Source of the DNA: Balanoglossus misakiensis
Taxonomy: Eukaryota > Animalia > Hemichordata
Reading direction: 5' to 3'
Assembly: GCA_040954595.2 (NCBI GenBank)
Contig: CM082576.2
Location: forward strand, 2,144,760 to 2,208,759
Length of the DNA: 64,000 nt
Each line of letters opens with the position of its first letter. Position 1 is the stretch's first letter. The translations under genes and the position numbers were made by a program. The notes under the pieces are model-generated. The model searched no databases, was not told the DNA's origin, and saw only the letters and a program-made list of their open reading frames with translations. This document shows, piece by piece, positions 14,930 through 62,800 of this stretch.

Positions 14930-18397
<3,468 letters not shown>

Positions 18398-25700: not shown

Positions 25701-28700
25701 GACACTGCCAGGAAAAATAATTCAAAATCTTTCAATCATATGATTCTAATTTCAAAATAATAACATCATGCTAAGCAGACACTGGTGGTATTACGTCAAG
25801 GATTTTTAACTGAAACAACACATTTTTTAATGAAGTATTTTTGTTGGCTTATATAGGGCACAATGTGAAACACTGCTTGCTATCTTCTCATGTTCACACA
25901 CACGATTGCTGTCAATCATTTTGGGGTCCATTTCTTTTGGAATTGCAGCTAGAGTACATGCAGTTGGTGTTCAGCTCACTTTACCACATAGCAATGATTT
26001 CCAAATGATTTTGTGCGCAAAACCTAATATATCATGAAGGATTTGTCTATAGCACACAAACATGACACAACTGATAGTTTTCATTTTTGACAACGTAATC
26101 AAGGGAAACTGCTACTGTTATCATCAGAGCCATCTTTAGGGTCCTGGACTCACAGCAAAAATCACACTGACGAGACAACATATTAGATCAAATAGAAAGT
26201 CCCTACTTGTAGAGAAAATGTGAAAAAGCCTCATCAGGTTGATCAGCCCACAAGGTGGGATTATGGCCGATTTTCAATGTCCATAAAACTAGACGATCAT
26301 ATGCCAAATGTCTTTTCAAATAAACCCCCATTTCACTTTTAACATAATTTCTGCCATCATATTATTATGAATCCATGAGTGCATTTCATTCCAGAGAATC
26401 CATTTTTGATTTTTGTTATATATGATAACCATTATATGGGTTGGAGATTTTCTTTCTATAAAAGATTCATGTCATGTGTACTTTAGCAGATCTTACAAGT
26501 ATAAAGTCTATGTCCCTTGTCTGTGGTGACTAATGTCTTCACGTACCTAATCCATGTCAGGAATTTGAACCAAAAAATTAGCAACCCTTGCAATGAGGGC
26601 AGGGTTATGTAACATTATCTCCTCTGTGCTGTGGGGTCAAATTATACGATTGACACTCATAACGCAATCTTTTTCACCACTGTTCACGTTGTGAGATGGT
26701 GTAGGCGTCTTTCATGATATCACTCTTCGCATTTGAAATCTTGCAAAACTGAAATCTGACCCGAGGGTGGGCATCAGTGAGAGTGAGACTGCATAAAGAC
26801 GGTGTACTATTTGGCTCGGCCCACAAGTATCTAAAAATAGTCTTTCTAATCCTCTCCTTGGCATTTGGTTCTATGGTTCGCACGTGTCAACTGCAGGTTA
26901 ACTTTATGGTGCTCATCAGGAAAGGATTACAAAAATTCACCCCTTTCAGCTGAAAAGAACAGTGCCCAAAAGACAAAGTACAACGTGTATCACTCTGTAC
27001 ATTTGGGTGGAAAATACGACAAAAGCAGGGGCCAGGTTTTTTGGATTGCTTCCAGAATTGCTGCCTACGCTTTATCCAGACCAACATTGAAAATAACCGA
27101 GGGACATATTTTTTTCAAAACTATCATCTGACACTTCCCACCAGGGCTTTTCTCCCAATCCCCATCACCATGGAGATCTACAACAAACAAGTCATCAAAG
27201 CTTTGATGTATCCCAACAGTGCACAGGCCAATCAATAGATTTTGTCAAGTAGCCCACGTTTCCATTGTTCCTGGCTGACTCCAAGCCCCCTCTTGAGGGC
27301 GACTAAATTCAGCATCGGTAAAAGCTCACACCGTCTGTTATAATTGCTGCTTCACCTTTGAAGGTCAAAACCAGAAGACATCCTCCACAGAACACAAATA
27401 ATGGATGGGTTTTCATTCATCACAGAGAGATGCAGACAGATCAGATGCACAGTGCAGATGAGTTACTGCACTTTCTGACAGTACAAATGGATTTTTGCTC
27501 AATATGACTGTGTATGGTGATCAGATTTCTAAAATGATACTGCATTATATATAATTGTGTAGCCAACTTCTAAAGAAGACAGAAATATTAGGAAAAATAG
27601 ACAGTTCATCACATGAAGGAATGAAGTAGGACATTTTTTAACCAAAAAAGATCAACGATAAATTAGCACAAGGGGCCGGCTGTTTACAATTTCACTTTCA
27701 AGTAGACTATGACTTGAGAAAAATATTTCAAGTAGGAATTTTAAGTATATGTTCTGAAAAAGTAGCTGGTCAGAAAAGGTCAAAGCAGCCAGTTGCTTAT
27801 GAACACCCCTGCTGTATTCATGATGGTCTTTCTATGACAAGTTGGATTTCGATTCCCCTGTACACCTGTTCTTGGCTTGGAGAAACATTCCAGCAGAACA
27901 TGACAGATCAAACGACGAAATCAGTCACCAACTGTGGTAGCCATTTACATGCACTATATTAATGAAATCTCGGCCATCCAATGAACACCTGTCGTGCAAC
28001 GGTGCAACTTTGAAATGATAAGTGTGTATACCCCTGGCAGGGCTGTGCAAATCTTGCAAGCTCCATGCAAGACCCAGGAAACTGATAATCCACACACCCT
28101 GGGCAGGTTTCCCAGATTACCGATCTGTCAACCAGAAATGGACGACATATTAAAAAAACCCATGCTAATGGAAGCTATGACAGGATGATGCATCGCTTGT
28201 ACACTATATTTAGAAAGTGTGTAATGAAAAGTAGGAGAGAGTTCAGCGACTGGCTGCAATCTCCTGACATTGGAATGACATTTGTGCAAGCGCCAACATC
28301 ATCAATCACTTGGCTTGAGCAAATTGTCAACATATTTCCAATGAACCTGGAGACTTTAGCCAACCAACTAATTTGACATGTAAGAATGCACTGGGCAACA
28401 ACTGGCTATCAGTTAGGCCACAGTCTATCCCTCATGGGGGGGGGGGGGGAGGGGAGGGGTAACTTGTCTATTTGATTAGGACAAGATCAAACCTAGTTCC
28501 ACATCATAGCAAACTGCATAGTAATGGCTGTCGGATCACACACAGAAGGCAATGCTTTTCTGAATGATCAAGTAGATTTTCAATTTAAATTTAGCATAAC
28601 ACAGAATATCACAACAAACAGAGGATGAATGGGCAGGGGTGTGGCGGCCAGATTTTAAGGACAAACTCCAAAACAACAAAAGCCAACCTATTGTCCTAGT

Positions 28701-31700
28701 CTTCCCTTTGTTGTGCAGTGACCGTGGGACATCTCCTCTCTGAGGCAAACCTGTTTGTGACTTTCCATCTAATCTATAAACAGCACTCAAAATCACTACC
28801 TATACAATCGGATGCCGTTCCTGAAAAAACTCGAATGGCATTTATCAGTAGGTTTCTCGCCTGAATTACGGCACTGACCCCCTCCCTCCTTTATGCGACT
28901 GCCCGTGCACTGACCCCCCTCCCTCCATTGTGCGACTGCCCACCCATTTCCAATCCAACACAGCCCTAGTTACCAGGACACAACAACGCCACTGAAAACA
29001 ATGTGATATCATTAGCCAGACACAATGCCCCTGACACATTGTGTCGCCATTGTCCCTTCCTCGCGTACATGGTGATAAAGGAAGATTTCTTACTAATGGC
29101 TACCTGGCTCACTGACTGTGGTGACCTTTTGGTCATGCTCCGACAAACTTACATCAGAAAGATTCATTGGAAAGCTAGCTGCCCTACATTTCAGATTTGT
29201 CTAACAATATGATTGCTACACAAACATTCATACTTGAGTCCATGTGTAAATAATCGTTTATTAATTGCCAAGTACCACATTATGGAAATTATCAAAGGAT
29301 AACTGATTTATAATGCATATTGTTGCAATGACAAACAGCATCTTCAACCCAATGGCCGCCTTCTCATATTCTGATCTGATTGGAAGATGATAAATGACAA
29401 AAAAGAACAGGTCCTTGAGTTTTCTGCAAGAAAAATGAATATGAATGTGTCACCATTTCCCTCCCACGGCCAAGGAATATTGGAGAAGAAAGGATTAATT
29501 TAGTCTTCTTGGAGGTGTTTACAATACACGGTCTCTCAAGGACAGCATAAATAAGATGTACAATATAGGAGACTTGAGAAAAGTCATGCATTTATCTCGA
29601 GTCACAGACATAATCCAGATGGATATGCAATGAGTAGAAAAATTTATTTTTAAATATGAAAATTAAAGGACATCTCTGGTACATATGTGTTTAAAGCTCC
29701 ATGTACTATACATAGATTCCTTTTTTTAGATGTTTTATTTTAGCAATATTAATTGATCAATCAATCAATTCTAAACATAAAATCAAGGATCAGTCATCTG
29801 AAATCAGGGCTAGAATAAACCCATAGAGGCAACTGGGATGCTTATTAAACAATTTGCTATTTTATTTTTAGCTCACTCTGATAATCTCATACATGAATTA
29901 TTAAAAGAGCAGCTCTTCTCAAGGACAAGCGTCCATATGATAAACAAGCATGGAATTTCAGCCTTGGTATGATTCAGTAATATCACTCAAACACTGGACT
30001 ACACCCCATTTTCTCCCCTGTTCCCAATCTGACAGCCTCCATTATTTACGACTGTTTTGAAGTATATCGCCATTTAATCACTTGTAAAGCTAAGGACATT
30101 CTGCAATTACCCAGTAATGCATTCCGGTCGCTAGGCAACTGTCAACACTGGTTAGTTTTGTTCAAAATTTTAATAAAAACCTGTGGAAACAACATATTAG
30201 CCCCAAGCTGGCCAGATTGTATTTTTATGCGTGTGTCTGTCTGTGTGTGTGTGTGTGCCTGTTTCTGTGTATATTATTAGCTAGGGATGCATGTACTGAT
30301 TATGGTAAAATCTGAGCTGTTTTTATTTCTTTGAGTGAAAGTACACTGCCTGTATATTATTAAAGAGAACAGTCTGACATTCAGAGTACAAATAGCAGGG
30401 GCACAATATTCAACCACCCCCTAAATGTCAAATGATGACCTAGGTCTATTTCTCGCTTTTTTTTCATTAGTTATCCAGGCTCAACCTGCAAATGTCACTT
30501 ATTGTCCCCGTCTCCACTCTCGTTTGGTTCAACCCTGTCATCTCCAAGGCAGTTTTGGACCTCTTCACACACAAAATGGGGGTGGGAAGATCAGGCTGGA
30601 GGATAGTTTTTCTCTCCTCCTGCTGACAAGTCTGAAAAATACACAGGCATCTGGGCTGAAAACCCCCAAAATGTTGCATCCTAGACCTCGTCACATTGAA
30701 AATGGGGTGGCAGGGTTAGACCAGCCATGGCAACTGCCATCTCCTGTAAAAAGCACATGTTTAAATCTGTCACACAACTCCCATCTCAATCAATGTATAC
30801 ATAATCCAATAATACAAGTCTATTTATAGCATCTGTTCATTACATTAATAGTTCTAACAGCTTTCAAAAGTTAAAATTGAACACAAGACACAAATGCAAA
30901 TATTTGCTGTTATAACAACCTGACATCAATCTATTTTTTTTCCTTCAGTGGGAGAGCTGAGAATCGAGTGGCCCCTGTCGAGAAGTCTTTTTTATCTGTA
31001 AAGTCATCAAAGTTTAATATGAGAATATATTAGAGTGTTTCCAAGAATAGATTGAAAAAGCGAGGGTCCCCCTGAGGTTGGGTTCTTCAACTGTTTATCA
31101 TAATTCTCTCTCTGCCCACTTCTTGATGTATAATTCATTGTCTACCTAAGGGGTATAACTTTTCAAGGTTTTCCACTAGTGGTTTGGTGGTTTGTTTGTT
31201 TGTTGTCTGTCTCATTTTTGGGTGGGGTCGGAGTATTATTGTGTTCTTTTTGCAAACTGTGGATTTTTAAAACTCAGAACCATTTCTTTCCTTCTTGAAA
31301 TTTTCAATCAAATTGTTTTTATGCTGATGGCTCGCAGACAGTCTGACAAATCAAAATAACATTATAAACTACAATATCTTTAGAAGAAATCAGTGAATGC
31401 AACAGTTCTTGTCTCTTGATAAAAGATATCAGTACTTGGCTGAAAGGAAGCCCCTAGATCCATGCATACTTTAAAATATAATCAATTGTATGCACCACAA
31501 TTCAAACACACACAATGACCACATTCATATCAAATATATAAATAAAGCATGAATAATTTGAATTGGGTCTTGTCAAAATAGCGACAGAAGTTGAACCCGC
31601 AAATACCTTTCAATTCAGACTGCACAGACAGTTCCATGGAATCCCAACAGTGCACTGGCAGTCTTGCTGAAAACTAGCCACATACAGTTTTCTTTTTCAG

Positions 31701-34700
31701 AGGAGTATATTCCCACCAAAGCTTTCCAATGTTACACACGTGTCAGCACCAGCTGAAAACCTTTAGTTTCCATTTTGGGAGTTTTTTTTATATAATATGA
31801 CTGACAATAACTGCTTTGATCACTACTCAGGTAGAATCATTTTCTAATTTCTATATACACTTAAAACATTTTTTTACAATACAGTGCTATTATTTTCCCG
31901 GGGATTTAGTGCTCAATGTGGGAAATGCATATTAACATACTTTCTATTTTTGGAAAAATCATTCTATCCGTAATAACTTGGGGGCAATATCCAAACACAA
32001 TCAATCTACCTCACTCCCCACCAGGCCTCTACATTTTTATTGAGTCACGTTTGGAAATAAAAGAGACAGACAGAAATGAAATAAAAATAGGCTTCTTCTG
32101 ATAGATGATTGAATGGGTGTTAAGTCAAACCAATGAAATGTACCCTCAACGTGTTATTAAAATGCATTAATTTTTTTTATTATTCATTAGTACACAGTAA
32201 ATATTAGCAAAATTGCTGACTCAACTTCCCTTTAAAAAAAGAAAACCCCACAGAAAAACCCCCACACCTGAAACAATTTGGCATAATTCAATTTGCCATG
32301 ATTAATCCTCGTGTCTGTAAGCATGAATAACAAGACAGAAGGGATTTACACTAAAATTGACTTGACCATAGTCCGCCGCGTCGCTGAAAGGAAATGAATA
32401 GGCCCCCATAGTAATTGACAAAGCTGATGGAAAAGCGTGGATATTGGAAAGAAATCAGGCTGGCTTCGTACTATTTAAAGCTGCAAGATACATGCGTCAT
32501 ATACATCGGCAAATTCATGGAAGCCGCGTTACAATCAGATACAAAAGTCTATTTTTACACTGCTAATACTTCGGCAAGCCCCAAACAAATCAGTTTTCAG
32601 CTTCTATTTTTGAATATGAAACCAGAAGGCCTTCAGTTGCTACGACAACAATCCCATCACTGTGCCTTGCTGACTGTACTACCAAAACTGGTTTCTGTAC
32701 AGCAAATCTGTATGTGATGCATTTTCCAAGGATTTTAATAGGTTTTTTTCCCGTAGGTTTCTAGTGATAACCATGTACAAAGCTCTGTGCTACTAACAAA
32801 TAACCAGTTCGTTCAAAATTTACAGGTAGAATGAAATATGGACAAACTACTTCTGGAAGCCACTGTCAACAGTCAATTCTTTCATTTTTCACATCTCTAA
32901 GCTGGCTTTTATCATTACTACAATTTAACTGCCTTATTTGCACAAGAATCCATTTCCTGATTGTAGATATTGATGGAGTGGAGTAGTCCCCACCAGTAAA
33001 ATATGAATAGCATTTCTAGAGTCATTTAAGCAAAGGAGAGTCAAGATAGCATGTAATCACACAAAGTCATGCCCAGAATATGATATGTCTCTTTATTGCA
33101 AAGGAAGTGGGTTCAGGGCCACAATAGAACACACACACTGCCCAGGTTCTTTTTCATGTTTACTCCACAGTTTATTGTAGCACAGGGGATCAGAAACAGT
33201 TTTCAAGGATTTCCAAGGAAACGATTTACCGGTAATTCCCCTCCCCACTTCCAAGAACTTTCCAGGAGGGGCTTAAGATTCCAGGGCTTTTCATGTGTGC
33301 ATAAATGTTACATATTTAGCCATCAAGACAAGTGTGTGTCAAAAGTATCCAGTCGTAGGTCTTTACTTGTTAAACAGGCAAACTCACCCGCAAATTTTTA
33401 TTATGCTTGATTGCCAATTTTTATGTTCACAGTAATTCTAAAGGGAAACTGGATAAACAGTAGTGTTTGTACATTCCATTATTTGAGCAAACACCGTAAA
33501 TTCAACACTGGAATTCAGCATTTAAATCACAGTCTCCACAGAACACTTGGTGCTCCATTTCGCGTGAATAATATGACGGCATGTGTGCTCCTGAACAAAT
33601 CGTGGGGAAAACCATCATAAACTTGGCCAGTCAAAACCAAAATTGTTGAAGTTTGGGCTGATTTGACAGGCTAAAAAATAATATATTCTGACAGCCTTTT
33701 AATACTGTCACCATGGCAGATTTGATTTCACCTTTTAGGAAGAGGGCAGTGTGATTTCTAAAACTTGGAGGGTTGATAATGGTGTCATTTCCAATCTGAC
33801 TGATTTCAAACAGCAAGGGATTTACTCCCATGAAATATGTTCATTTATTTTGCGTTGACAATAAGTCATAAACTAGGTGGCATTATTGCTGGGGCTTAAG
33901 TAGGTCAAGCATACAGACTAAAATCAGTCTCTGCACACAGATGTACATATAATTGAACAGGGATATATTAAGATACTGCTAAATAAATTCACTCAATCTG
34001 CCATTCGGACCTGTCACCGTGGCAACCTTTCAAACATTTTAAATGGCAACGCCATATCTATGTGAAATAGTGGGAGGGGTAATTTTTTTGGATTACTGAT
34101 ATTTTGGCTACTGATATTTTCTTCTCAGTAAAATATTTATGTATGTCTGTAACTCACTTAAGGCATATCATATGAAAAACAGTTCAAGGATTTTTTTTAT
34201 TGTTCTGCCATTACTACTACTAGGCAATATCAGCACATTCAGAAGTGTTCAGCTAAGGTATTTGTTTTTTAATAATAGGAATCTTGACGTCAAATGAGCG
34301 AGAACTGTTGCGTTGGAAGTGAAATTGCACTGCTACAAATGTATGCTATTCTCGCCAATCCAAAAATACCCTGCCGTCGACAAAATTAGCAACTCAACAA
34401 TTGCAAATATGTCACAAGCAGATGTATGGCAGGGAACCAAGTTACTCATTGTAAAGAGAAATTACTATGGATGTTTATGTCTGCAACAGTCAAGATGTGT
34501 AAAGCCGATCATACAGTGTGAATGGTTACACTTATTCTTTGCTTTTATGTTCTATTTATTCCCCCGCAATGGCTCCTGGTAACAGAGCGGCCATTGGTTG
34601 ATGTTGGTTACATGCTACACAGCAGCGACGGCAGTGCGTTGCTAGACATATCAACACACGGCCCCTATTTTGTTACCGCAACATTTTGTCAGGCGTCCGG

Positions 34701-36541
34701 TTTCTGTCAGTCCCCTTCATTTCTGCCACTGGCAGCTGGCAGGTTGAAACCACACACTGGAGCTGGTTTCAAATTACCAGGACCCAGCAGTCGACCCAAC
34801 CCCAGCTCCATGCTAAAGGACACCTGTTGCTAGCTGCAGGCAGGGTAGGCCTTCTGCCAAGCAGGGCCAGCCATGCCATCGGCCACCCCTGTGAAAGCAC
34901 CCACAACAAAAGTATGCTATTATAGTATATGCCACTATAAATGGCTCTGGCCATTATGTACTTTTCCTTGATGGTCTTTTTTTCACTCCTGACGCTATTC
35001 GTACACACTTGTTTATTCGTTTGTTAGGGTAATCAGGACAGGTATTTACTTGCTTCTGGTGGGGACCTATTGTCATTCTGGGCAATAAAATTCCATTGAT
35101 AATGCACTGGGCTGGCTCCTGTGTGTCAATAAATAAATCATTGTCCAATGAACTCTTTTCACTGAAGATTATTGCAGTAAACACACCCCAAGACCTTGTT
35201 TAACACTTGTTGGCAAATATATATGACAGGGGGAAAAGTTGGCACTAGTTCATTTTACTTCAATTGAACAAGTTCGTTGGCACAGTTCCCTTGTTCCTGA
35301 CAGCTTTTCTCTCTCTTTTTATTGCTGTTACTCACCTTATTTGCAAGGGATGTGGAGTAACAGCAAAGCATTTACCTTTTGAAAAGGCTTACTGGGGATG
35401 CCCATAGCAGAAACGCTGAAAGTGGTAAACAATTTGAACAAGTATCAATGTTTATGTTTACTTGATCACACTGTCATGCAATCAAATTCAGCTGCAATGA
35501 TTGTAGCGGGTGCTGCTTGGTTGATGATCTTCTTCGCACCACTACACCAGTCAACCTTGCAGCAACTGCTACAATCATTGCAGCTATATACTTTCCCCTG
35601 GGCTATCCCTATACCTACCTACTCAGCGTGGCGAAGAGTCCATTCTTACCACCAACAGCACAGATCACTTTAGGTTGCCTCCTTGGTTGGATACTGCTCC
35701 CCATCTGCTGTGAAAGTTGCACTCTCTCTTCAGGCACTAGCTGGTATTTCAGGGCTTTATTGATGAGCTCCTGGCAAGCATAGTCGTCCCGGATCAGCTG
35801 GTCTGCTTCGTAAGACTGGGTCAGAAACTTGACCGTCAGCAGAGGCAGGCGTATGCAGGACAGTAGTTTGGACAGATGTCGCCTCCTCTTGTTGATGTCG
35901 TATTTGATCCACTTCTCAAATGCGTGGAACACCGATTTCTCCGACTTGACGTTCAGATCGTTGCTTGACAACAACTCCGAGACTTCGTTCACCTCCAGCT
36001 GACAATATTCGTCAGTTTCCAAAACTTCTTCGAAGTGCTGACATATGTAACTGTATGTCTTGCGGTAAAGCTCGTTACATGCGTGGGTTTCTGCAAATTT
36101 GGCGATGCCGATGCAGTTGCTCGGGTGGAGCTGGCCTTCCAAGAAATCACAGCACTTCTTGGTGACCGATTTCAGTTGTAAGATGTTGGCGGCTGGGATG
36201 AGCGCCTGCACTGTGACCTGCGAGATGTGCACTTTTCCTGTATACGCGAAATCGACAAGCAATTTCATCGCCGATTCGTCTATAGATTTAAATTCGATCT
36301 CTTCCTTTTCTCTCTCACACATGTTTCCAGTAAACATGGCCTTAAAATACGGGCTACAACTTGCCAACACGGCCCGGTGGGCCCGTATTCGGCTCTCATC
36401 AATACGAAGCACAACATCGCAAAGTTCTTCCCGTTCCCTTAGTTCGTTCAATCCCTGGAGTAAATGTTCAGGATATAATTCAACCTCACCGATTGTCACC
36501 AGGCTGTTGGCGTTTTCAGCGTCTGCTTCCACACCATCCAT
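22773..36541 (-). CDS. KLHL28: Kelch-like protein 28 (BTB-BACK-Kelch), 573 aa
   Basis: Coding exons (minus): 36541-35619, 25704-25279, 23657-23449, 22936-22773 (TGA), phases consistent. BTB LCDVVL...AHRAVLASCSPYFKAMFTG, BACK domain, kelch repeats. KLHL28-like segments VICAVGGKNGLFATLS, DKRINFGIGV, GGHNGVSHLSSVERYDPH and C-terminal CRCNFGLAEL. Possible 5'UTR intron 36629-36760. Confidence 0.93.
23302..23385. mobile_element. 84-bp piggyBac-type mini-MITE in KLHL28 intron
   Basis: TTAA|CCCTTTAACC ... GGATGAAAGGG|TTAA: TTAA at 23298-23301 and 23386-23389, with CCC/GGG termini characteristic of piggyBac. Confidence 0.7.
28871..28941 (+). repeat. Two-copy ~36-bp tandem duplication
   Basis: GCACTGACCCCCTCCCTCCTTTATGCGACTGCCC (28871-28904) and GCACTGACCCCCCTCCCTCCATTGTGCGACTGCCC (28907-28941). 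Confidence 0.85.
30231..30257. repeat. (GT)n/(GTCT)n microsatellite
   Basis: gtgtgtctgtctgtgtgtgtgtgtgtg seen directly. Confidence 0.7.
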
Positions 36542-39101
36542 CGCGTTCTCTTCGTACACCGATCGTAAGGGCTGAGATGCGTTAAAACTACGAGTGTGTC
36601 TTCACCATAGTGCTACCGCAGCGATTGTCTAGCAATGAATGATGATAAATATCAATGAAAAGGTAACTTGGGGGAGACACTCCCCTGTCTGTAAGATTTA
36701 CAATACGGCCGCCTTTTCCTCGGTGAATCCTTTTCATAAAATATCAGCTTATCAACTTACGCGGAGAAAATGCCACTGAAACTTAAATATATATAACAAA
36801 GAGTTATATTTTTATGATTCATCGAACATTTCGCAGTCTACAAAAAATAATGCTCTACTGTTTGCATATGTTTGTCTGACTTAGGGGTTGTTCGTTGGCG
36901 ACTGCGCGTTGCGTGGATATGAACTGAGCTTCAAGATCACGAAGATCAACATCACTCGAAAGCTGGACCAGAGCAAGAGTAAGCGACTTTAAACTTGTAG
37001 TAAAGTTTGAATCACTTGTGTGATTTTTATTTAAGGCGTTATCTGAGTCCAGTTCCAAGATACGTTCAACAAAGGAGAACTTATAGGCCTACTTTGTAGT
37101 AGTTCCTAGTTGTCCGAGAAATCCACTTTATTAAATTTAGGCAACCGAAAAGCTGTGTAGTTTTGTTCAACTCACAAGTATAAACGTACCGACGCAACCC
37201 ATGTTATCATGCTCATAGCCCACAAAAATCCAACGTTGGGCCATGGATATTTTCCCAGTATTTTTGTTTTGGTTAGCAACTTTGATTTGTTCTTGTACTC
37301 TTCAAGCATAAAGAATTGTACTGCATTTGTTATTGTTGGAAATTGAATTATGGTCCGGACTTTAATTCGTTTGTCAAGAATAACAACTGCCGTTACTCAT
37401 ATACAAACTTTAATGAGCATTTCATAAAGCTATCCAGAGTTTTTGCGAAGTCTGAGGACATCAGTGGGTGAGCTGATGGAAAATTCGTGAGGACGCCACT
37501 CAAGAACTCGAGAACACAAACTTTTGTTTTGTGGAAGTGAGGGCGCTGTAAAATAATGATCTCCGAAAGACTTCAAAATAAAGGTCTCAGCTGATATCAT
37601 TGCGTTACCGACATGCTATACCTTCAAGTTGTGCCAACAAGTTCGAATGCTATCAGCTGCATAATTGTAGCCCGGAGGCGTGGGGTTACATGGTTAGGTA
37701 GGACTGGGACAAAATGGGCCTCGGAGCCATTCAAGCCGACCCTAACCCTAACCCCACTCCTGGAAACAATTAACTGTTTTGCAATTTGCAGATTGCCCCT
37801 CCCCTCTTTTAGGGAAAACAATATTTAACGTTTTGCATATATTTACCTGACATAAAATATAATCGTCACCGTATTAAACACTTTATGACATCCGAGTTTA
37901 AAAAATTTCTGCGTATTTCATAAAAAAATGCTTGGGGCTGAGAAACAAATATTTACTGTTTTTCCTATTGTTTACCACTGATATCGAAAATAATCGTTGG
38001 GATATTAATTACTTTATTAACTGCGTTTTAAAATCAGCCCTGCGTCTTTCGTAGAAAAAACTGCCCGGGGCTGGGTATTCTGTGTATGCTTTCATTTTCC
38101 GTGGGTGCTTAATCGTTGGTGGCGCGCGCGGAAAGCTTTATTGGAGATTGTACAGACGGGGATGGCGTATTACTATTAGTCAGATCGTGGCAAAACTAAA
38201 CCCCGCCAAATGATTAAGAATTCTTTAATGGAACCACGGAAGCGCAGATCCGCAGCAGGTTTCTAGTGAATGAAAATATCAGTGGCGAGTTTTAGCTCTT
38301 ACACCCGACTATACTTGGGTTGAAGATACGCAATGTGACGTCAAATGTTTTGTACTGAACTTCATACGCAGAAACCAGACGAATTTCTCAACAATAACTG
38401 CATGCGAGACATGGTTGAACTCTCGACCGACATTCAGATCCCGCATCATCAAGTTTTTTACCTTTATTTCATGCTTTGTACTGAAATAAATACCCCTATA
38501 CCCCTCCTGCATGCAGTTGGCGAAGGAAGGCGAGACGGCCTGTCTATTTTCCACTTCGTCGGAATGATAAATGCCGGTAATAGATGAAATAGAAGAGAAC
38601 GTGTCATTGACGTGATAGAGGCATATCGTCTAAACAATTACATCTATGATAGCTAGAGCACGGCAATGGCACCGAACATTATTGCGCCGATTTGAAATGC
38701 ATGATCACGGTGTCCATTTCATTAAAGCCTGTTCACTTTTGTCGCGTCGCCAGGTAACGAAGGTGCGTGCGTGCGCACCCAGTGAAAATCTCTACTTTCT
38801 TTACTGTAGGCCTAATATATCGGTGCCTGGTCTCATATATTTTGTTCTGTTCCTGCGATTTCTGGCTCTGCGAATTCAAAATCACTAGTGGTTTTGGAGT
38901 CGCATATGGCGATTTTGGTCTATAATGGCAAGCGAAGAAAATACAGCTAATGTCGTGACACACATCACGCACATGAATCAGGTCTTGGAGATCGTTTGAT
39001 GATACTGGATGTTTTGTGAAAGTGTTTCTCGATGGATTTAATTTGAAATTCACGAATTCCTTTGCGATCTGCTTTACAAGTAGCCAAGCCTGTTGTTTTG
39101 A

Positions 39102-39137
39102 TTGTTGCTGTTGTTGTTGTTGTTGTTGTTGTTGTTG
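39102..39137. repeat. (TTG)n microsatellite
   Basis: About 12 TTG units with one CTG interruption. Confidence 0.9.
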
Positions 39138-41359
39138 GTAGTGTAAAATAAAATTTAAACTTATATACCGCTGCTAATAGATGGCAGGAGCCATATGAAA
39201 TGTCTCAGGTCGGATTGCAGTAAAATGCGTCACTGTACGTTGTACTCGATGCTAAAAAAACACCATCGTGACGTTAAGCCCAGAAGCCTAATCTCGTGAC
39301 ATTGGGATTTACAGCCTCCGCATAAAGATGTACTTGAATTCATAGAACCGTGTCATAGCTACATACAACCTTCACCTTTTACGCAGAAATAGTTATTGGG
39401 AGAAATGCTTCTATGATCGTGTGTACCGGATTTTTATTATTTCAATAGGAGGGGGACAGTGCCCCCGGAGAATGCTATGTTGATGACGCGCGTGAATTTT
39501 TTACTGAGTGACTACTTTTATCACTGCCGAAAAAACGAACACAGAAAATGATTACTTAAACCAAGGCTATAACACGGGGCGGATATGTTGATGACATGAT
39601 TATGGCAATGAAAATCAGTGTGACTACTGCAGATTGACTCTTCTCGAACTTACAACTATATGCAGTGATTCAGAGAAATCGTCGTAGGCGCAGACACATG
39701 CATGAGTTGGACCACGGTAACTGTGTTGAATGACCGTGTCTGGAAAGGGGACTGAAATATGGCCATGTGGCATCTATGAAACAATTCACCTGACAATTTT
39801 ATCTTTTGCCCAAATCTTTAGAGTCATACTGAACAAAGTGTCAAAGCAGCTCCGCAACTGATATTGCAGTCATTTGGAAGGTGACGGGATGTTAGCAAAA
39901 TCGGTGATCATGACACAATCATCACAATGATTGTATTTCACGTTTCTACGACTATTCAGCGATCGCATATTATTGAATGAATCAATAAAAAACAGTGACG
40001 CGGCTCTAGTCTCCTATCCACATTGTAAAAGTCTGTTTGTTTGGGGTGGATTTGGGTATGCAAGTTTACTTGCCGACATGTTAGTAAAACTTAAATTTAA
40101 TCTGCTTCAGGAAATAATAGATTTCCTGGCGACGTCGAGGAAATCTAGTCATTGAGTCCCTAATTCTCGAGGTACACGACAGGAGTGTGTTCAAAATCTG
40201 CGGAATTACCGTTCAATGTTTTGTTTGGGATTTGTCGCACGATCGCTTGGACGGTAATCTTGTTATATGGTTAAAACGTAAATCGCACCGATTACTAAAC
40301 TGACTTATGTTGAGAAACAGCACAATGTGAACAACTCCCCCCTTCTCTCCTTCTCCACCCTCTCTCTCTCCCCACAAATAGTGGATAATTTCATTCTATT
40401 ACATAATTTCCAAAAACGGTTACCCCCCCCCCCCCAGTGAGAAACCACATGTGGGGAAATGCGATCGATCTAAAACCATAATAATGATCGGATGGTGTAA
40501 TAGCACATGAAAATGACAAACTCCACTATTTTCCAGTTGATCATAAATACACGAGGATGCTAATCATAATTCGATGACTGTGTTCCAAGCACCCGCGAGA
40601 GAAAATTTAATAATCTCACTTAGCGCAGTTCTGAACTCCCCGAAGGCCCAACTCGTGAGTAGTTTCCAATAACGAGGTAAAGTGGTAACCGCCATAAAAC
40701 AATTTCGCGCGCAACGGATTGTCAAATTTTTGAAGGTGTCACACTCATGAAGATAAATAAATAAACCGCCTAACAAACCGACAAGATATTAAATTTTAAA
40801 TTTATTTAATCAGTTTGTTCTTTTTTTGTTCGCGTATGTCGGTGTTTATAATACAGAACAAAAATTCTGAGCTGAAGTTTACGGTAGCAGTGCCTTCACC
40901 AACAGAACGGAAGCCACCGCTTTAAAAGCGAACTATTATATTTTGTCGCTGTGGGAATTTTATACCCTTCGGCCGGCCGAGCGAAAGCTTTTTCATTTAT
41001 GCAGTGGTTGCCCGGGAAACTGTACTTTTCTTTGAATACGAGCTTGGACGCTCAGAGTGTGTGTTCATGTTTTGATATTCGTCAAGGTGATACTTTTCAA
41101 AAAATTCCGTTTCCTCTACGTGTGAAATCTAACACCTGAAGGAAAAAAGTTTCACGCGGATGAAATTTATCGAGACTAACAATCGATAAGTAAGTGATTT
41201 TTTGGAAGAGTGGGGGAGGGTAGGAAAACCAATGAAATTAATCATAAAAACACCGCTTTTAAAAATATTATACTTCATATTCACTAGAAGTGTTACCGAT
41301 TCGTCAATAATGAAAAAGATACAGTTATCAAGTACATTGTATAAAGAATACGCGATGTG

Positions 41360-44689: not shown

Positions 44690-44801
44690 GCCCTGATTGG
44701 TTGAGGAGCTAATATCAATTGAGAAGTGCGGCCATTAAAAGGGGAAGAGAAACGCGGCCCGATCCATTCGGCGAAACTACAAGCAAGGCGACAGACGCGA
44801 G
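44690..44801 (+). promoter_or_regulatory. Core promoter and non-coding first exon of the secreted peptide-precursor gene
   Basis: Inverted CCAAT (CTGATTGG, ~44693-44700), TATA-like CATTAAAA (~44733-44740), Inr-like TCCATTC ~30 nt downstream (~44763), consensus donor GAG|gtaagt at 44801/44802, and a matching acceptor atcctttttgcag| at 45263. Confidence 0.65.
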
Positions 44802-45300
44802 GTAAGTTACGCGTTACCTTGTACTTACTATGTTCTCTACTTCATTATCTTGTCATTCAGTGATTTTTCTTTTAACTTTATACATGCCCGAGAGTATTAA
44901 TTTCCCGTTTCCTTCTGAAGCCTGTACCCAATTGCAATCTTCCTACGCGTGTGCTGATCGCGTTTGGCTTTTAATTAAAAAGTCCCATTCAGCTTAAAGG
45001 TGCGCATTCAAAGCTTTCAGGCCCTCTTTCGACTCTGCAATCGTGCTCTGTGGTACTGTTTACACGAATAAGTTGCCTAGGGGAGTTTTCATCAACACCA
45101 TCAAATGTGTGCTCCCCTAACAAAGGAAACGCCGTATCGACTGGTGTAGGTTTGTAACGCCTTGTCCGTGCAAAACGCTTGAGGGTGAAATGGCGACCCT
45201 AAATTCCGTGTGGGTGTTTCTGCTTCTGACCACATGTAAAATAATTATGTATCCTTTTTGCAGAATCTCGAAAAGAAGAATCTTCACACAACTCGACACT

Positions 45301-45571
45301 ATGAATCAAGTAACTCTTATTGCTGTCTGTGCCGTCTTCGCAATCCTACTGTGTGCACAGACTTCGAACGCCAACCCGTTAACAAAGAGAGTGCTGTCGA
45401 GTAGCCGGTGTTTCGGCGACTCGCTACTGAGCCGCGACTGCTACGGATCAAAACGGAAGAGGACGTCCGCAGACGGTGTTTCTGAACTCGGGCTGATCAT
45501 CCAGGAATGCCGAATGGCGGAGTTCAAAGCCCCGGTCTGTCAACTTGCTCACTACATACAAGGCATGGAGG
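45301..45571 (+). CDS. Small secreted neuropeptide/peptide-hormone-like precursor, family unassigned (main coding exon; last exon unresolved)
   Basis: MNQVTLIAVCAVFAILLCAQTSNA (signal-peptide-like, predicted cut SNA|NP) - NPLT - KR - VLSSSRCFGDSLLSRDCYGS - KRKR - TSADGVSELGLIIQECRMAEFKAPVCQLAHYIQGME. Exon 45264-45571 bounded by cag| and G|gtgagt. Candidate terminal exons: 51114-51187 (strong polypyrimidine tract, AATAAA at 51368) or 47074-47135. Unspliced read-through stops at 45600. Confidence 0.8.
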
Positions 45572-48500: not shown

Positions 48501-51026
48501 ATTCAGAAGATCCTAGCCAGTATTAAAGGGTTTACACCGAAATGTTGAAAATGACCGAAAGAGATTATTATTCGAGAAGAAGTTTATTAGATTTAGATAA
48601 AAAAAAGGACAGAAAGTATGAGTTATAAGAACGCCAGTTGCCTCTTCTATGATTGTAAGGCGGGCTAAGTCCGAGATTTATCGTTGTCTGTAAGAATCTG
48701 TCACTTTAGAGAAGCATGAAATTGCATATGTTCAGAATGAAACCACCAATCCTATGATTTCAGGTGGCTGGTTGCAAAAAATATTACGCTGACCGCTGAT
48801 GTCAGTACATGTATACGTTTTGAAATCTCATTACTGGGGTATTAACTTTCATCATGCACTTTAAGTCTTTATAATATCCAGATCATAGTCAGTATTTTCC
48901 TCGATATTTCATTTCATATCGGCTACGTTTGAGTAGCTAATTTTTCCTCACAATAATGCGAATTAAGTCACGGAAAGTGATTTAATCGAAAGTTAGTATT
49001 TTTTCTAATTCCTTGATAGGTTATTCGGATCAGTAAATTCCTTACTGGTCGAGACCGCCAAGGATGATGACTGATCATTCCCCGGTGAAAGCAAGTATAC
49101 GGTGTAATTCTCATGTTTGGCGTTCCCCTGGCAACCGCATACTTCTGATCTTTTTTTTAGAAACACGTCCAGTATTTGTCAGTGTCGGAACATTGGAAAT
49201 CGGTTAGCCAAGCGGGGTTATTAGTCGAGTGCAACATCGTGAGTCTGTCGTAGACGTTCATTATCTCATCCATCGTAAATATTTAATGCCAATGTATCGG
49301 TGAGGCTCGATAAACTTAAAGCAGTCATTCTTCCGTGAATTCTGCGGCTTCAATCTGCAACTGCAGTTGTGTCAATATTGGAAGATGGGCGATACAAAAC
49401 AGCATTATTGGCCCTGCAGATAGCCTCGTTTCTTGTGACCGAACGAAAAGGGAAATGTGTCCGTTACTTTTCCCAATAATGCGTGTTATCTGAACTCGCA
49501 ATTATGAGCTAGCGGAGACCTAAAACACTTGAATAGTTCTGTGTGGTTTGCAAACAACTCCGCGCCCGAAAGAAATGAGAAACGGTTTTCCCCGAGCGTA
49601 GAAGTTTCGAGAAACACGACTATCCTCTTTCATGTGCTGCGTCGTCAGTCTTCTTGTATTACCCATACTGTTTGTCTTTAGAAAACAATTTTGACACCCT
49701 CGCCCGAACAGGAAATAACCACTTGAATACTCGCATTTGGTGACCTACTCGATGACGACATTGATGCCAACAAATTCACCGAATTATGTTGTTGAATTGT
49801 TTTGCGATGTATCTCAATACGGCTGCCAGTTAGCCTTGTTGATGTTGAGCAGTTACTTGGACGTGACTGAAAGTATTTCTTATGAAGTTAGGTTTAGTGC
49901 CCGGATCTCATCCATTATGGCTGCCACTGAACTCTGGCACATTTTGCACTACCGTTTATTACAGGAATCTAGCGTATAAAAGTATGTCGTTCCAGATTTT
50001 AAAAGTGCTGACTGGAACCATCATTTTATTGGAAGTGTCTTCCTTAATGGTTAATCGGGAGCAGCGCAGCTGTATGACGCACTGACTTTAATCCACCTAT
50101 GATATTATGAGCACTGTGTCATAAATGATGACTTGTTTTCTGCGAGTGGTATGACTGAACTTTTTCTTCTCAATTTGCCTTGCAGAGAGACTGGCTTACG
50201 CTTTTTCACTTCTTGACGAAAAGGACGGCATCGTTGGAGACAACTAAATTCGTGTAAAAAGTGTGTTTCTATAAGTAAGTTTAGGTTCATATACCGTTAT
50301 ACTGTATTTGGTGTAAACATTCTGTGTATATGCGTGTATCTCAGCTCGGGTTGAGAATGATAAGAAAGGGTGAAGATAACAAATGAGGCCGATAGAAATG
50401 TTGTCACGTCGACATCGCGATAGCACAAGTGGTTGAAATGACGGAATTCAATTCAGAGACCAATTTCAAAATCAATATCGATAGCCTAGTCTGGAGAGCG
50501 CATTTTATTGCCACCAACGTTTAAGATATGCAGGGTGTACATTAGAGTTCTGGCAAATCACGAATGCCGCGAGAGTTTTACAAGACTTCGCATACATTCT
50601 GCCATTGAAGGTGGTTTGTCCGTCCTTAGCATGCAGAACTGGCTTCGGCAAGTCGGCGATAAAGTCAGCGGGATAAATTGAATGCCGAAGACGAGGATGG
50701 CAGAGGAAGGTTCACACCTGCTGTGTTTATGCCCATATTATCGTTGTCGTCCCATTTCCTTCTGAGTCATGATTGACTTTTACGAGCCTCTAGATTGATA
50801 AACTTTTATTTAAATGTACGGGACTATTAGCGTACATATGGCGCAGTGGCGCGTCTGATCTCGGATTTCCATGGCAACAACGACCGATGCCGCGTGCTTA
50901 CAACACCGACATTACTGTCGATTCTTCCAACGCCGCGCTATTGCAATATAACTCGCGAATTTTAAATTATGCAAACGTATTTTAGATAGAGGTATTTCAT
51001 ATTCATCATTTACTATTTTATTGAGC

Positions 51027-51047: not shown

Positions 51048-54000
51048 TGTTTCGTTATTTTCTATGCCATCATACTTCTCTAAAATGTTTTCTTTCATTT
51101 TCTTCTGTTCCAGGTAGTCCCCACAGGTTGAATCATTTCTCCTTGTTACGTTTCAGTTGTCGAATTGTCAATCCCAATCCAAGTTAATCCCCGGATCCCT
51201 CGGATGCAAGACTTTCATAGGCTGTACAGCAAATTATGTTGATTATGTTGAGGTCACCCCGACTCAATGGCTCTTCAAACTGTAGTCTGAAACCTTCAGA
51301 TGATCCTCACCGGATCAAACTGCTGTCCTGTAATATTATTTCACAGTAATTACATTTAGCCCGATGCAATAAAACTTTAATATGTGATTTTCTTGTTTGG
51401 GTAAATTTCCTTAAAGAAGGTAAACAGAGTTTCGTGTATCATTCATTGATATCGGGTTCGGCGGAGCGCTGCCTGAATTGGGGGCATGCGTCACATTTTA
51501 AAGTTAACTGTTCCAATTGAAAAAAAGCGGCAAATGAAAGATGGTATTGGAAACAAGTAAACGTGTGTATGGAATCGATTTTTGAACTCGCCTGACGAAT
51601 TACCATTATTCATTCTCCAAGGTACATGCTTTCATTCACGTACTTTCCAATATTGGATTGATTCCTTTTCTTTAGCAAAGGCACAAGAAAGATTTCCCCT
51701 TTTCAACTGTTTCTGGTGTCGCTAATTTAATATATTGGGTAAATATGTCATAAGGAAACAAAGCAAGCTGGATTCATCCGTGACCGATACACTACACAGT
51801 ATACCCTCTGCTGTTACACAAATATTTAGTAGTTTCCACAACACAGAAATGCTGAATTTCCCCCCGAAGAAATGATACGCAATTCCGCAACTTGAAACTA
51901 TGCGTGAAGGAAGCCACCTATAACATCGTCACATTACTCTCGTTAATTGAATTCTGACGACGGAGCGATTTACGCAATCCATTCGTAAGAAGTGGAATTT
52001 AAAAGAGACAGAGAAAGAAGAAGAAAAATTGTCCAAGGTGCGGGTTTTCAGAAACCTCGTCTTACTGCTACTGATATGAGAACGAATGGGCGTACATGTA
52101 TAAGGAAGCGTTAATCTTTCTGCACGTCTTTCTGCTAATAGCTGCCGTCGACCAGAATGCGAATCTGTCCGATGTCTCACACGTTTTGACGGTCGCCAGG
52201 CCCCAATAAAACTTTACTAGTGGGTTTTAAGACGCCTTAACCATACAAAGAGGTAATTTCCTGGTTTGCAGTCTGTAATGCTTTCCCCGTTTTGCCATTT
52301 TCAACGGGAAGGATCGGTTCGTTAGTCTTGAGAGTCTCTTACGACCTCAGTTCTGGAGAAACCCTTCAGAATGGAGCTGTAAAAGTTATTCACTTCGTTT
52401 ATCGCCAATACATTTAGTTCGTCGGATACGCCATATACGCCGTGGTATGGGCTCTGTCCCCCACTCTCGGACGGAAACACATTTGATGTTTTATGCGTCT
52501 GTTTGCAGAAACGAGACATGTAGGCACAACTACCAGGGGAACTATAATGAAGTGGTAAAGCTATGATAACACTCAGTGAAAATGCGTTCCGTCTGCCAGT
52601 GCGTTTTGTTTCGCTCTTATCCAAATGATTTAAAGACTTAACACCTGTGTCTCCTGGTAACCACGGTAATTTAGGAGTTCTTAAACAGAAAATAAGAGAA
52701 GTGGACATTCTTCTCCCTCTGGGTGTCGTTAACTAGGGCGGATCTCGAACAGCAGTCGGGACTATGACCTAATCTCTACCTTGTTAGAAGAAGACAACAG
52801 ACACCGGAGATACCTCTAGGGCCGATGGAAAGACCAATGCAAGTTACAATCAGTGAATTTCTTTTGGTCACATTAAAACCCCTAACTCCTGAATATCGCA
52901 AATGTCATCCAAGACACGCGTTAACAAATCTTCCAAGTGTCGGCGACTTCATTAGGGGATCAACCCGAGGACAAGCATACACTGGCGTCAATGACAAACC
53001 GTTTGACAATTATATTGTGTATATGACAATGTACAAGTGGAGTGCAATGTCTCCGGCCTGAATGGAGTGCAATACACGAACGATTGCACGACATGAGTAC
53101 ACTATCCGGCTTACAGCACGTAGCCTTATGACAACATCTGTGATCTTATGCTAAACAACTTCTCAATCACATCGACCAACCACAAGCTACAACAAAATGC
53201 ACCTGGTGGATGACGCAATCCGATTGGATAGTTGTCAGCCAGGTCATTTGTCACATGGTCAATGTGGTGCCACTTCCATCATTCGAATCTCAATCTTTGA
53301 CGTACAAACATCATGGCTGAAAGTAGTGACAACAACGACCTGTTTATTAGTACTCTGAGCAATTTCCGACAGCCAAATGAAAGTGGCGGTCATGACTGTG
53401 ACGGTATGGACCGGATTTTCCAAGATTTTCGTAGACTCGTTTAAGATAATGTACATAAACCATCGGTTATGGAAAGTGACTTGGCGAAAATCAAGGGTGC
53501 CCTTCTCCTGGCTTGCAGCGCCCATTGCGCACATCCTCAACAGTAAGTAACAGTTTTCTGTCATTTTTTCTCGAAACATTTAAATTTAAAGTTGTTTCGA
53601 TTGTACGTCAGCAAGGTTCTTCAAGGAAGTTCGTCGAAAAAATGGAACTTTCAGGCGAAACCACGTGCGAGGTAGAAATGAAACCCCAACCAAAGGTCAA
53701 AGGTCGAGCCCAGCGCAGAGATTACAAAAAAGATGGCCGAACTAAGTATGCGCACCTGGTGCAATGCAATATTCATATTGCACTGCGCCTTTGCAGTATA
53801 CGTAATAGCACAGATAATGTCCCAAGAGAACAAAGAGTCTGGGCACGTGTAGTGTTGTAATCGTTGAGAATAACTGAACCCAGATGTTGAACATATATTA
53901 CTAATACACTGTCTGGTGAGCACGTCAGTAGTAGAATGACGTCAGTCCCGAGAAAACTGTGGCGACCAAGGGGTTACGCCGAAAAGCCTGCAAGTAACTT

Positions 54001-59800: not shown

Positions 59801-62800
59801 TGAATATTGAGTCAGTAGTTACAGAGACTTTATTAAAAGAATGAGAAGCGTTTGTTTTCTACAAACCTTAAGCATTTTGACGCATTTTCTGTACTCATTT
59901 ACATCACAGATAGCCAGCATACCACCTGTGAAGAAATAAATAAAACAAACTGTGAAATGGCAGCGTTTGCAAATTAAGAATCAATCAAATTTCCTTCAAA
60001 AAGTTTTGTGACAAATAAGCCCAGTCAATCCAATAGGCAATGCACGGATTTGATTCACCCAAGGATCCATTTCCAACTTTCACTAAAAAATGACTGACAT
60101 ACAGTCTTTTGCCACCTCTGCAGCAAAGTAGTGTCTATTCAACAACGAATACAAATCTCATTGAGGTATCGTTCCAAGTTTACCTACCCACATCATTGTA
60201 CGTAAACTGCTGCAGATGCTCGTAGATTGTACGGTGAAACCGCACCCCGAACTCCGTCAGAACTGTGCTAACATTCTTACCATCCAGTGGTTTTCTGATG
60301 TTTGTGGCTTGTGTGTTCACAAATTGCACTACTTTGCTGCAAGCCTGGAAATGGCAGAAGAAAATTTAGGACTGTGCTGGATAGTCAGATGGTTTGAATG
60401 TATATCTGGGTGATTTGTCCCATTCTTTGTGCAACATCTGATGATAGGATTACTTACATTGGTGTACAGTGTCATTGGCCCCAGCATTTCTGATTCAGGT
60501 TTGAAGTCGGTCTTCTTTTGTTCTGTGCTCAGGATGTGTTTAACATACCCCATCACAGCATTCAACCCTCTGTTTAAAAAAAAACATTCAGGCAGGGTTA
60601 AAATCCTCTTTTCTATAATGTTTCCAGTTTCAATGGTTAAAACTCTGACTTCCGAGACAGACTATTTACCCTAAAGTTGAACCGGACAAGACAAGAGGGA
60701 TGATGCATAAAATATGCATAACATGACAATGTCAACCCACTGTCTGTCTGAATGACAGAGCCTAAATGGATAAACTGAATTATTTGATCAGTGAAATTCA
60801 GTTTCACTTTACCTGGAGGCAACTGAAACTCGCCATTTGCAATGGGCAAACACATATCAGCAGAGGTCATCAGATGTGTCAATTTGAAGAGGACCAAAAC
60901 GCATACAGTGATTTTGCCAACTACTATAGATCTTTTGGCAATGCAAACTTGTCAGTTTGCAGCTTTTTTATTGACTGTTAATTTGGATTGTCAGGAGGGT
61001 TGAGAGTCTGAGGGTTTATACCTGTCAAGTCCAGTGTCTATCTTCGCTTCGATCTGTTCCATGATCTCTCGCTTCTTCTGAACACATTCAGTGTGTTTAC
61101 GGGAAGTACTGCAAAACAAAATAGTTATCATTCAAAGGTATAAAGTATTTCATATTTAGCGAAGGGGACAAGAACAGCAGAAAAAACTTACTTTATTAAA
61201 GGAACCAGAGTATCACTGAACTGCCTCTCCAAGAGATGAAATATAGCATTTGCTTCGCCAACAACGTCAAAGAAATAAACCTTAGGTGGGGCTTTAGGGT
61301 CCGGTGGAGGGATACCTGTAGAAAACACACAGAAGATTTAGACAACTGCTTGTGGGTTCTACACAAGAGCCGACTGATACATTACACTCTTTCATCAGTT
61401 CCACCCTCTACAGTCGACTATAGATTTCCTATTGTGACTGAAAATATGTTTTTTTGATCACTTTACAGAAATCTCTCCCAGCAATCCATTACAGATCAAA
61501 AGCAATTCAGTCAAGGTCAAAGTCAAATTCAAATCTTCCTTTCAGAAATATATAAGGAAAATGAACATTAATGCCAATGGTTGAGGGCATAAATTCAATA
61601 AATGGAAGTCTCTTATTCTGTGCCCATTGTTACCATCCAGAGAAGATTTATTTTTTAGAGGAATTAAATACTGGTTTGTAATGTGAGATAGAAAATGAGG
61701 TATCTAGTATGAAAAATTTGCGTCAAGGTTTGGTCGGGAAATGCTAAGCCCCTCGGATCTGTGTAGTTACAATTACGTGGGAGTCAAGGTAAATGGCAAA
61801 CGATACTCCATAGTGAGAATACATGCCTGTAGTTTGCAATAAGCGGTTAAAATGACAAATGTGAAAGAATAAAAAGCAGAAGTGAGAGCGGTTTGGTACC
61901 AATTACTGATTAGTCACATCTCCCAGTGATATTCAGGCTCTGTCGTATTCAATCATATCCACTCCCCCAGAAATCTGTCCTCCTCTGCTTCAGCTGTCTC
62001 AATTGACCTGAACTTTAATTGGCTGAAGAGGTTGATCACGAAATATGACAGCCCACCCACGCGACATGCGGCGCGCAAATCCCCCTGGAAAGTGGCAATA
62101 ACATCACCAGGTGTAAATTGTTTTTATATGATAAATTTGTGCGATTAAGCTGCCAGTCAAATTAAATCTGTTTTTTATTGGACCTGACATGCATTATAAA
62201 AAGGGTGGTCTTTCTGTGTGCCTGGTGAAGTCAAGCCTGAAAATCTTGTGACTGAAATATGCATGCAGCTGGTTGATATTATCGAGGGGAAGTTTTGAAT
62301 TCTGTCAGTATGACACTATGAAGTGACCATGGCAAGCCAGCAAACACACTCTGTGAAAACCGAAATGTCAACCCCACTGAAATGTCGCCCTAAAGAAGAA
62401 TTTCAGTGGTCTACTTTATTCCATTTTAATGGCTGCAAGATACTTTGTGTTAAACAACCTCTGTATTGAAAGTAGGTTGAATGCCGATTTGCCAATTTGA
62501 ACTCAAAGCATTCATTTGGAGATAGCTTCTCATTTTTCCCACCCATACATGTATCTCTTAACATTAGTAACTTATGACCATTTTTTATCATCTTGAAATT
62601 GAGATCTGGGTTTACAAGAAAGTATCATAAATTTGTAAGCGAGTCCAGACATAAAAGAATACAACAGTGGGGAAGATTGAAGTCTGTGGCCTACAGTAAA
62701 TGCTGTTCTCCATAAAATGGTTGCTGGAACACCATTGATTTCATTGTAATTGTATCTTACAATTGCTCCCAAAATCCAGTCTGGTTCTGCTTCATTAAAT

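Follow-up and report, generated by a model that had tools for sequence, protein, structure and literature searches.

Hemichordates occupy a place between the protostomes and the vertebrates, and missing links in neuropeptide evolution have come from them time and again. The locus considered here lies in a 64,000-nucleotide stretch of DNA from the acorn worm Balanoglossus misakiensis (GCA_040954595.2, contig CM082576.2, forward-strand positions 2,144,760 to 2,208,759; hereafter the window), and it raises the question of whether a short reading frame with a cysteine pair between two basic sites encodes the precursor of a signalling peptide and, if so, to which family this peptide belongs. The hemichordate neuropeptide set has been described as incompletely annotated, with peptidomics lacking (bioRxiv 10.64898/2026.04.13.718258). 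We conclude that the gene is genuine and, judging from its sequence, encodes a small protein that is predicted to be secreted and cut to a 20-25-residue peptide with a likely disulfide ring. The gene probably represents an undescribed enteropneust prohormone that would release a non-amidated cyclic peptide for a GPCR (G protein-coupled receptor), with processing, expression and receptor all being predicted. What is new is the reading as a peptide-hormone family, along with the motif and the gene structure; the gene itself is already present in RefSeq for three species.

Gene structure

Translation confirmed the core of a first-pass annotation of this DNA, which had described a frame that opens at ATG 45301 and runs from a hydrophobic N-terminus through KR (residues 29-30) and a 20-residue peptide to KRKR (residues 51-54); the peptide, VLSSSRCFGDSLLSRDCYGS, comprises residues 31-50 (nt 45391-45450). 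A scan for Met and a hydrophobic core, then a Cys ring with a dibasic site on either side, found this locus and no other in the window, and found nothing in 60 windows simulated with similar composition; the pattern had been formulated after the locus was already known. The precursor is present as one copy within the window, with no tandem expansion there.

Table 1. Positions of observed and predicted features of the precursor gene in the window
Feature	Position	Strand	Basis or description
Predicted core promoter	44693-44742	+	Reverse CCAAT and TTAAAA TATA variant; consensus match
Predicted non-coding exon 1	44760-44801 (start approximate)	+	Consensus donor GT 44802; prediction
Exon 2	45264-45571	+	Short 5' UTR and, from ATG 45301, residues 1-90 with one extra base; donor of phase 1 at GT 45572
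Predicted 24-aa signal peptide	45301-45372	+	Hydropathy; 11/24 positions invariant in four species
KR, predicted convertase site	45385-45390	+	Invariant 4/4
Predicted mature 20-aa peptide	45391-45450	+	Contains Cys37 and Cys47; motif of the family, xLxxxRCFG-(x)n-L-xxx-C[YF]G
KRKR, predicted convertase site	45451-45462	+	Orthologues KK, KK, KR; one Lys only invariant
Second conserved region	45484-45571	+	Short helix ending at Cys70, variable loop, Cys80 opening a long amphipathic helix
Exon 3	50186-50274	+	Last 20 codons, stop ends 50247; candidate donor GT 50275
Candidate non-coding exon 4	51114-51373	+	AATAAA 51368; splice and polyadenylation consensus

The coding part of exon 2 is matched by the Ptychodera flava orthologue (tblastn, E 1e-29 across 45301-45570) and is separated from exon 3 by a 4614-base GT-AG intron of phase 1 after codon 90 (splice sites of the model: GT 44802, AG 45262-63, GT 45572 and AG 50184-85). 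Independent support for exon 3 comes from an HMM for which only the orthologues' three C-termini were used; it matched the exon with E 3.1e-6 as compared with E 6.9 for the runner-up in six frames, and the P. flava protein matches it by tblastn at 50188-50238. Splicing completes a window protein of 110 residues. The first-pass annotation had named further exons that make the product a large non-peptide protein as evidence against its reading; exon 3 adds only 20 residues, and since the protein stays small, this objection is removed. With regard to the proposed CCAAT/TATA promoter, a reverse CCAAT box (ATTGG) is present near 44696, whereas the second element, TTAAAA near 44735, is a TATA variant and not canonical TATAAA. 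Predicted exon 1 (44740-44801) is free of upstream ATGs, and so is the 5' part of exon 2. Beyond what had been annotated, the locus holds coding exon 3 and a second conserved Cys pair (Cys70 and Cys80), and ring size varies among the orthologues.

Orthologues and taxonomic range

Orthologues were found in three enteropneust families, one per species: XP_070578408.1 in P. flava, XP_078001098.1 in Glandiceps talaboti and XP_006819291.1 (LOC102801056) in Saccoglossus kowalevskii. All three (108-117 aa) are named "uncharacterized" in RefSeq, show 47-58% identity with the window protein as spliced, and share its layout, its six-Cys pattern and its motifs, but have a ring spacing of 11, 12 and 11, respectively, versus 9 in the window. 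The earlier proposal of a peptide of an invertebrate deuterostome thus holds for these acorn worms.

An exhaustive single-sequence search of 1.84 billion representatives returned 10 matches, namely these three orthologues and seven proteins that were dropped. One of the latter, from Nucella, is long and repetitive and lacks a matched stretch; the other six, three of them from Styela clava, are long multi-stretch proteins that matched mainly residues 50-90 through summed repeats. A search with a four-sequence profile, word-seeded and confined to lengths of 49-205, retained the same three orthologues among 206 candidates, and none of the seven dropped proteins came back. Neither search (1.84 billion representatives with the single sequence, 206 candidates with the profile) thus yielded a relative outside acorn worms, and a metagenome scan gave 127 pattern matches, none of which was confirmed. 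By eye, no similar precursor was seen in a brittle-star repertoire (PMC5627052) or in the descriptions of starfish Arnp21-25. The family is likely a new one of a well-known kind, seen to date in enteropneusts only.

Topic searches of the literature found no paper on the precursor gene. Its accessions and motifs occur in no main text searched; subscription papers, bioRxiv supplements and the 2013/2015 survey datasets lay outside this scope and could list the gene. They are likewise absent from the searched supplements of PMC6188537, PMC5627052 and PMC10508912 and from the searched part of those of PMC6425005, where line breaks can hide motifs, and the available parts of PMC13554239, PMC10386233 and PMC10508912 hold nothing on the gene.

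Conservation within the precursor

Counted over four sequences (the window protein and those of P. flava, G. talaboti and S. kowalevskii), conservation forms blocks. The invariant positions of the peptide are L32, R36, C37, F38, G39, L43, C47 and G49 (8/20), and those downstream of it are one Lys of the basic site, E62, C70, C80, L82, A83, I86, E90 and R92. By region, KR is invariant at 2/2 positions and Cys80 with its helix at 6/19, while the spacer (0/4), the linker (0/7) and the Cys70-Cys80 loop (0/9) have no invariant position; no other part of the mature region is as well conserved as the peptide. A short conserved peptide thus stands between basic sites with variable spacers, as expected of a prohormone. 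The expectation that conservation would concentrate on the Cys ring and the basic sites was borne out, with two qualifications: the downstream site is KRKR in the window, KK in P. flava and G. talaboti and KR in S. kowalevskii, and the C-terminal half is also conserved and may, from the alignment, be functional. The basic site after the peptide is retained in 4/4 species and is followed by Ser or Thr in each.

The predicted peptides comprise 20, 24, 25 and 22 residues (window, P. flava, G. talaboti and S. kowalevskii, respectively), with a variable loop and a net charge of -2 to +1. The C-x9-C ring of the first-pass annotation describes the window peptide but not the family, in which the spacing is 9, 11, 12 and 11 (ring of 11-14 residues). 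The peptides end in S, I, F and M, and without a terminal Gly, already noted as missing from the window peptide, they would not be amidated. All four Cys of the mature region are invariant, with spacings of 9-12 in the first pair and 8-10 in the second, and the C-terminal helix is conserved in 4/4 species and amphipathic. An AlphaFold2 model from the four-row alignment was poor overall (mean pLDDT 52.7); in it, two helices of the Saccoglossus protein (residues 69-76 and 84-113), one on each side of the second Cys loop, reached a pLDDT of about 70.

Hydropathy (Kyte-Doolittle, 11-residue window) peaks at 3.25 at residue 7 and does not exceed 1.27 beyond residue 30. By the same heuristic, all four species have signal-like hydropathy and no membrane anchor; as there is no second hydrophobic segment, the precursor should not be a membrane protein. 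The signal peptide (45301-45372) is unusually conserved across three acorn-worm families, and its invariant positions include Cys10; its mean pairwise identity is 0.62, versus 0.63 for the peptide.

Comparison with described families

No Pfam family matched the window protein, the four full members or the four peptides (E 10 for the peptide profile). Among PDB sequences, one chance keratin match (E 0.56) was obtained and none for the peptide profile (chains of at least 20 residues); Foldseek with the AlphaFold2 model gave no match at E 0.001, the VIA structure search gave a best Z of 4.6 to generic helices, and all ESM Atlas structure rows were below threshold. The absence of a Pfam, PDB or literature match agrees with the earlier statement that no described precursor fits. 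Partial resemblances to MCH, natriuretic peptides and CCHamide had also been listed there without a family assignment, and rightly so, since the defining features of each are lacking.

Natriuretic peptides (ANP/BNP/CNP) have a 17-residue ring with a CFG-x3-DRI core, end in LGC and lie at the C-terminus of their precursors. The acorn-worm peptides share the CFG after the first Cys, but were rejected as members because their ring of 11-14 residues is N-terminal and lacks DRI, and no Pfam or PDB sequence match was found. Insulin/relaxin-like hormones are defined by six Cys distributed over B and A chains, the A chain having a CC; with four mature-region Cys and no CC, the acorn-worm protein was rejected here as well. 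Bombesin/GRP peptides are amidated and have a phase-1 intron inside the peptide and a phase-0 intron in the C-terminal region (PMC12002301), whereas the present peptide lacks amidation and an internal intron, its gene having a single phase-1 intron after codon 90. MCH shares the Arg before Cys1 and a similar ring size, but it is C-terminal in its precursor with Met or Ile after Cys1 (PMC4772807) and has a basic residue penultimate to Cys2, unlike the acorn-worm peptides, which are N-terminal with Phe after Cys1 in 4/4; in addition, an MCH-type precursor of S. kowalevskii has already been described (PMC4772807). Finally, CCHamide/EP/GGNG peptides are likewise single N-terminal two-Cys peptides with a Gly two positions after the second Cys, and CCHamide-2 also has a dibasic site after the signal peptide (PMC5627052). 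By definition, CCHamide/EP peptides are amidated at the C-terminus and have GG or GA behind their second Cys (PMC6617912); none of the acorn-worm peptides does (0/4), and the group was rejected on this ground. The aromatic residue that the group has between the Cys, often His, is matched in part, by Phe in 4/4 and by His in 0/4.

Proposed mechanism and alternative explanations

The precursor has a classical prohormone layout, in which a predicted signal peptide and a short spacer lead to a convertase site and the conserved cyclic peptide, with the second site and an associated peptide behind it, and the ring peptide likely constitutes a new neuropeptide family; it is possibly the partner of an acorn-worm receptor without a known ligand. 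By analogy with prohormone biology, the signal peptide would be removed after Ala24, as the S(-3)/A(-1) pattern indicates, PC1/3 or PC2 would cut at the basic sites with carboxypeptidase trimming, a Cys37-Cys47 bond would close the ring, and neurons or endocrine cells would release the peptide. Because the loop of 9-12 residues varies and the residues beside both Cys do not, the face that contacts the receptor is likely the ring neck (RCFG paired with C[YF]G), together with the N-terminal Leu. The C-terminal half, in which the Cys70-Cys80 loop stands between a first and a long helix, would likely be a disulfide-stapled associated peptide, serving as a folding or sorting aid or being co-released. 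A GPCR is proposed on general rather than direct grounds, since most neuropeptides signal through one (PMC10508912). Feature neighbours in the ESM Atlas were GnRH, corazonin, CCAP, galanin, CCHamide-2 and neuromedin B precursors (0.83-0.87, lead level only). Against the prohormone reading stands the KK of the downstream site in P. flava and G. talaboti. KK is a weaker convertase site than KR. The near-equal identity of signal peptide and peptide, a pattern that is known from defence-peptide and toxin precursors as well, also counts against a neuropeptide. On the same side are the net charge of -2 to +1 with the variable loop, the linkage to IBA57 backed in only one of three species (see below), and the outcome of the two sequence searches, which gave no relative beyond acorn worms.

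These points bear on two other explanations. One is that the whole four-Cys mature region is active, either as an uncut small secreted protein with two loops or as a cut two-chain hormone with inter-chain disulfides; the invariance of all four Cys, the conserved amphipathic C-terminal helix and a second site that is only KK in 2/4 species speak for such a product. We consider it unlikely, given that a basic site is retained in all four species (KR-type in two), that an insulin-type six-Cys pattern is absent, and that the two Cys-Cys spacings vary independently (9-12 and 8-10), which is less in keeping with a rigid fold of two chains than with separate loops. The other, to which we give slightly less credence still, is a secreted peptide with a non-neural role (defence, mucus or gamete signal) for which, as for natriuretic peptides, a membrane guanylyl cyclase is a possible receptor. 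The strong conservation of the signal peptide, the confinement to one animal class, and the CFG after Cys1 with S/T-x-L before Cys2, which resemble natriuretic peptides, are consistent with this role; by contrast, the peptides are not cationic, the gene is single-copy within the window, the peptide profile found neither a PDB chain (at least 20 residues) nor a Pfam family at E 10, and the ring is too short (11-14 versus 17 residues), lacks the DRI core and is N-terminal, not C-terminal.

A further explanation, nested within the prohormone reading, places the peptide in the elevenin/CCHamide/endothelin group as a divergent member. It would then be the ligand still missing in deuterostomes for receptors of elevenin type (or for related ones of the CCHamide/endothelin group), having kept the C-x-G tail while its loop drifted, on a precursor that carries a second disulfide-stapled helical peptide. 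Elevenin-type receptors are bilaterian according to both PMC11004728 and PMC5818035; S. kowalevskii and B. floridae are predicted to have elevenin-like receptors, for which no precursor is known (PMC10175484), and echinoderms are also named (PMC11004728). Elevenins (L11, SNET-1) are two-Cys peptides without amidation (PMC5627052); the acorn-worm peptide, also with two Cys and predicted to be non-amidated, shares with them a length of about 20 aa and the N-terminal position in the precursor. The C-x-G after the second Cys is present in 44/44 rows of an elevenin table, mostly with about three residues more (PMC10175484), and in 4/4 acorn-worm peptides, two of which have three residues beyond it; its Gly was the most important residue for activating two of three Aplysia receptors (PMC10175484). 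However, the remaining elevenin features are each found in 0/4 acorn-worm peptides: the spacing, which is 8 in Aplysia as well as in those table rows that were inspected visually (PMC10175484), compares with 9-12, the C-R-G of 42/44 rows (C-L-G in 2/44; PMC10175484) compares with C-Y/F-G in 4/4, and the conserved Asp before Cys1 and in-ring Pro are missing, the one Pro of the Glandiceps ring lying elsewhere. In addition, lophotrochozoan elevenin precursors are conserved in the peptide only (PMC10175484), whereas the acorn-worm precursor has an extra conserved Cys pair and a conserved C-terminal half, and no echinoderm or amphioxus orthologue was found, though elevenin-like receptors are reported there. 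An elevenin-group identity is thus about as improbable as the four-Cys product.

The preferred reading, an enteropneust prohormone for a cyclic peptide, provides a four-species candidate that is ready for synthesis; one of the genes belongs to Saccoglossus, for which there are in situ and single-cell data. Should the ring peptide activate elevenin-like receptors, the existence of deuterostome elevenin signalling would be settled; should it not, the peptide would represent another lineage-restricted system, of interest to specialists.

Neighbouring genes and other features of the window

In the window, an IBA57 gene (13695-14768, minus strand, single open frame) and a gene for a proteasome AAA-ATPase (about 15700-17300, plus strand), which from its translation we take to resemble PSMC6, stand head to head; the two possibly share a bidirectional promoter. 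The closest matches of IBA57 are in P. flava (67% identical), G. talaboti (62%) and S. kowalevskii (52%), which points to an acorn worm whose likely nearest relative is Ptychodera, though as a different species. The G. talaboti records of IBA57 (XP_078001085) and of the precursor (XP_078001098) are 13 accession numbers apart and both refer to a contig of 33,943,121 bp, which suggests that the linkage is conserved. In P. flava, the contigs of the two genes differ in length and the accession numbers are far apart, and in S. kowalevskii the genes lie on different scaffolds, so that linkage is backed, by accession numbers only, in one of three species. As precursor and IBA57 are apart in P. flava and together in the window and probably in Glandiceps, a translocation in the P. 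flava line is suggested. The precursor is also flanked by an ankyrin/SH3 gene whose Pro/Gln-rich open frame spans 1007 aa (3620-11776, plus strand; presumably ASPP-like, from its translation), a BTB-BACK-kelch gene (23306-36601, minus strand; presumably KLHL28-like) and an exon at 60329-60661 (minus strand) that we take to be EXOC5-like; these three are handy anchors for synteny searches.

Perfect CRE palindromes (TGACGTCA) occur five times (34285, 38336, 41360, 41421 and 53937), as compared with 1.2 expected from simulated windows, in a weak count made after the palindromes had been noticed; three of the five are in intergenic DNA upstream of the precursor gene, with 61 bases between two of these. 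A short (TTG)n microsatellite occupies 39090-39140 in the upstream intergenic region. The sequence CCATGG[CT]AAC, presumably an RFX X-box-like half site, is found at 42600, upstream of the gene, and at 50869, in the last predicted intron.
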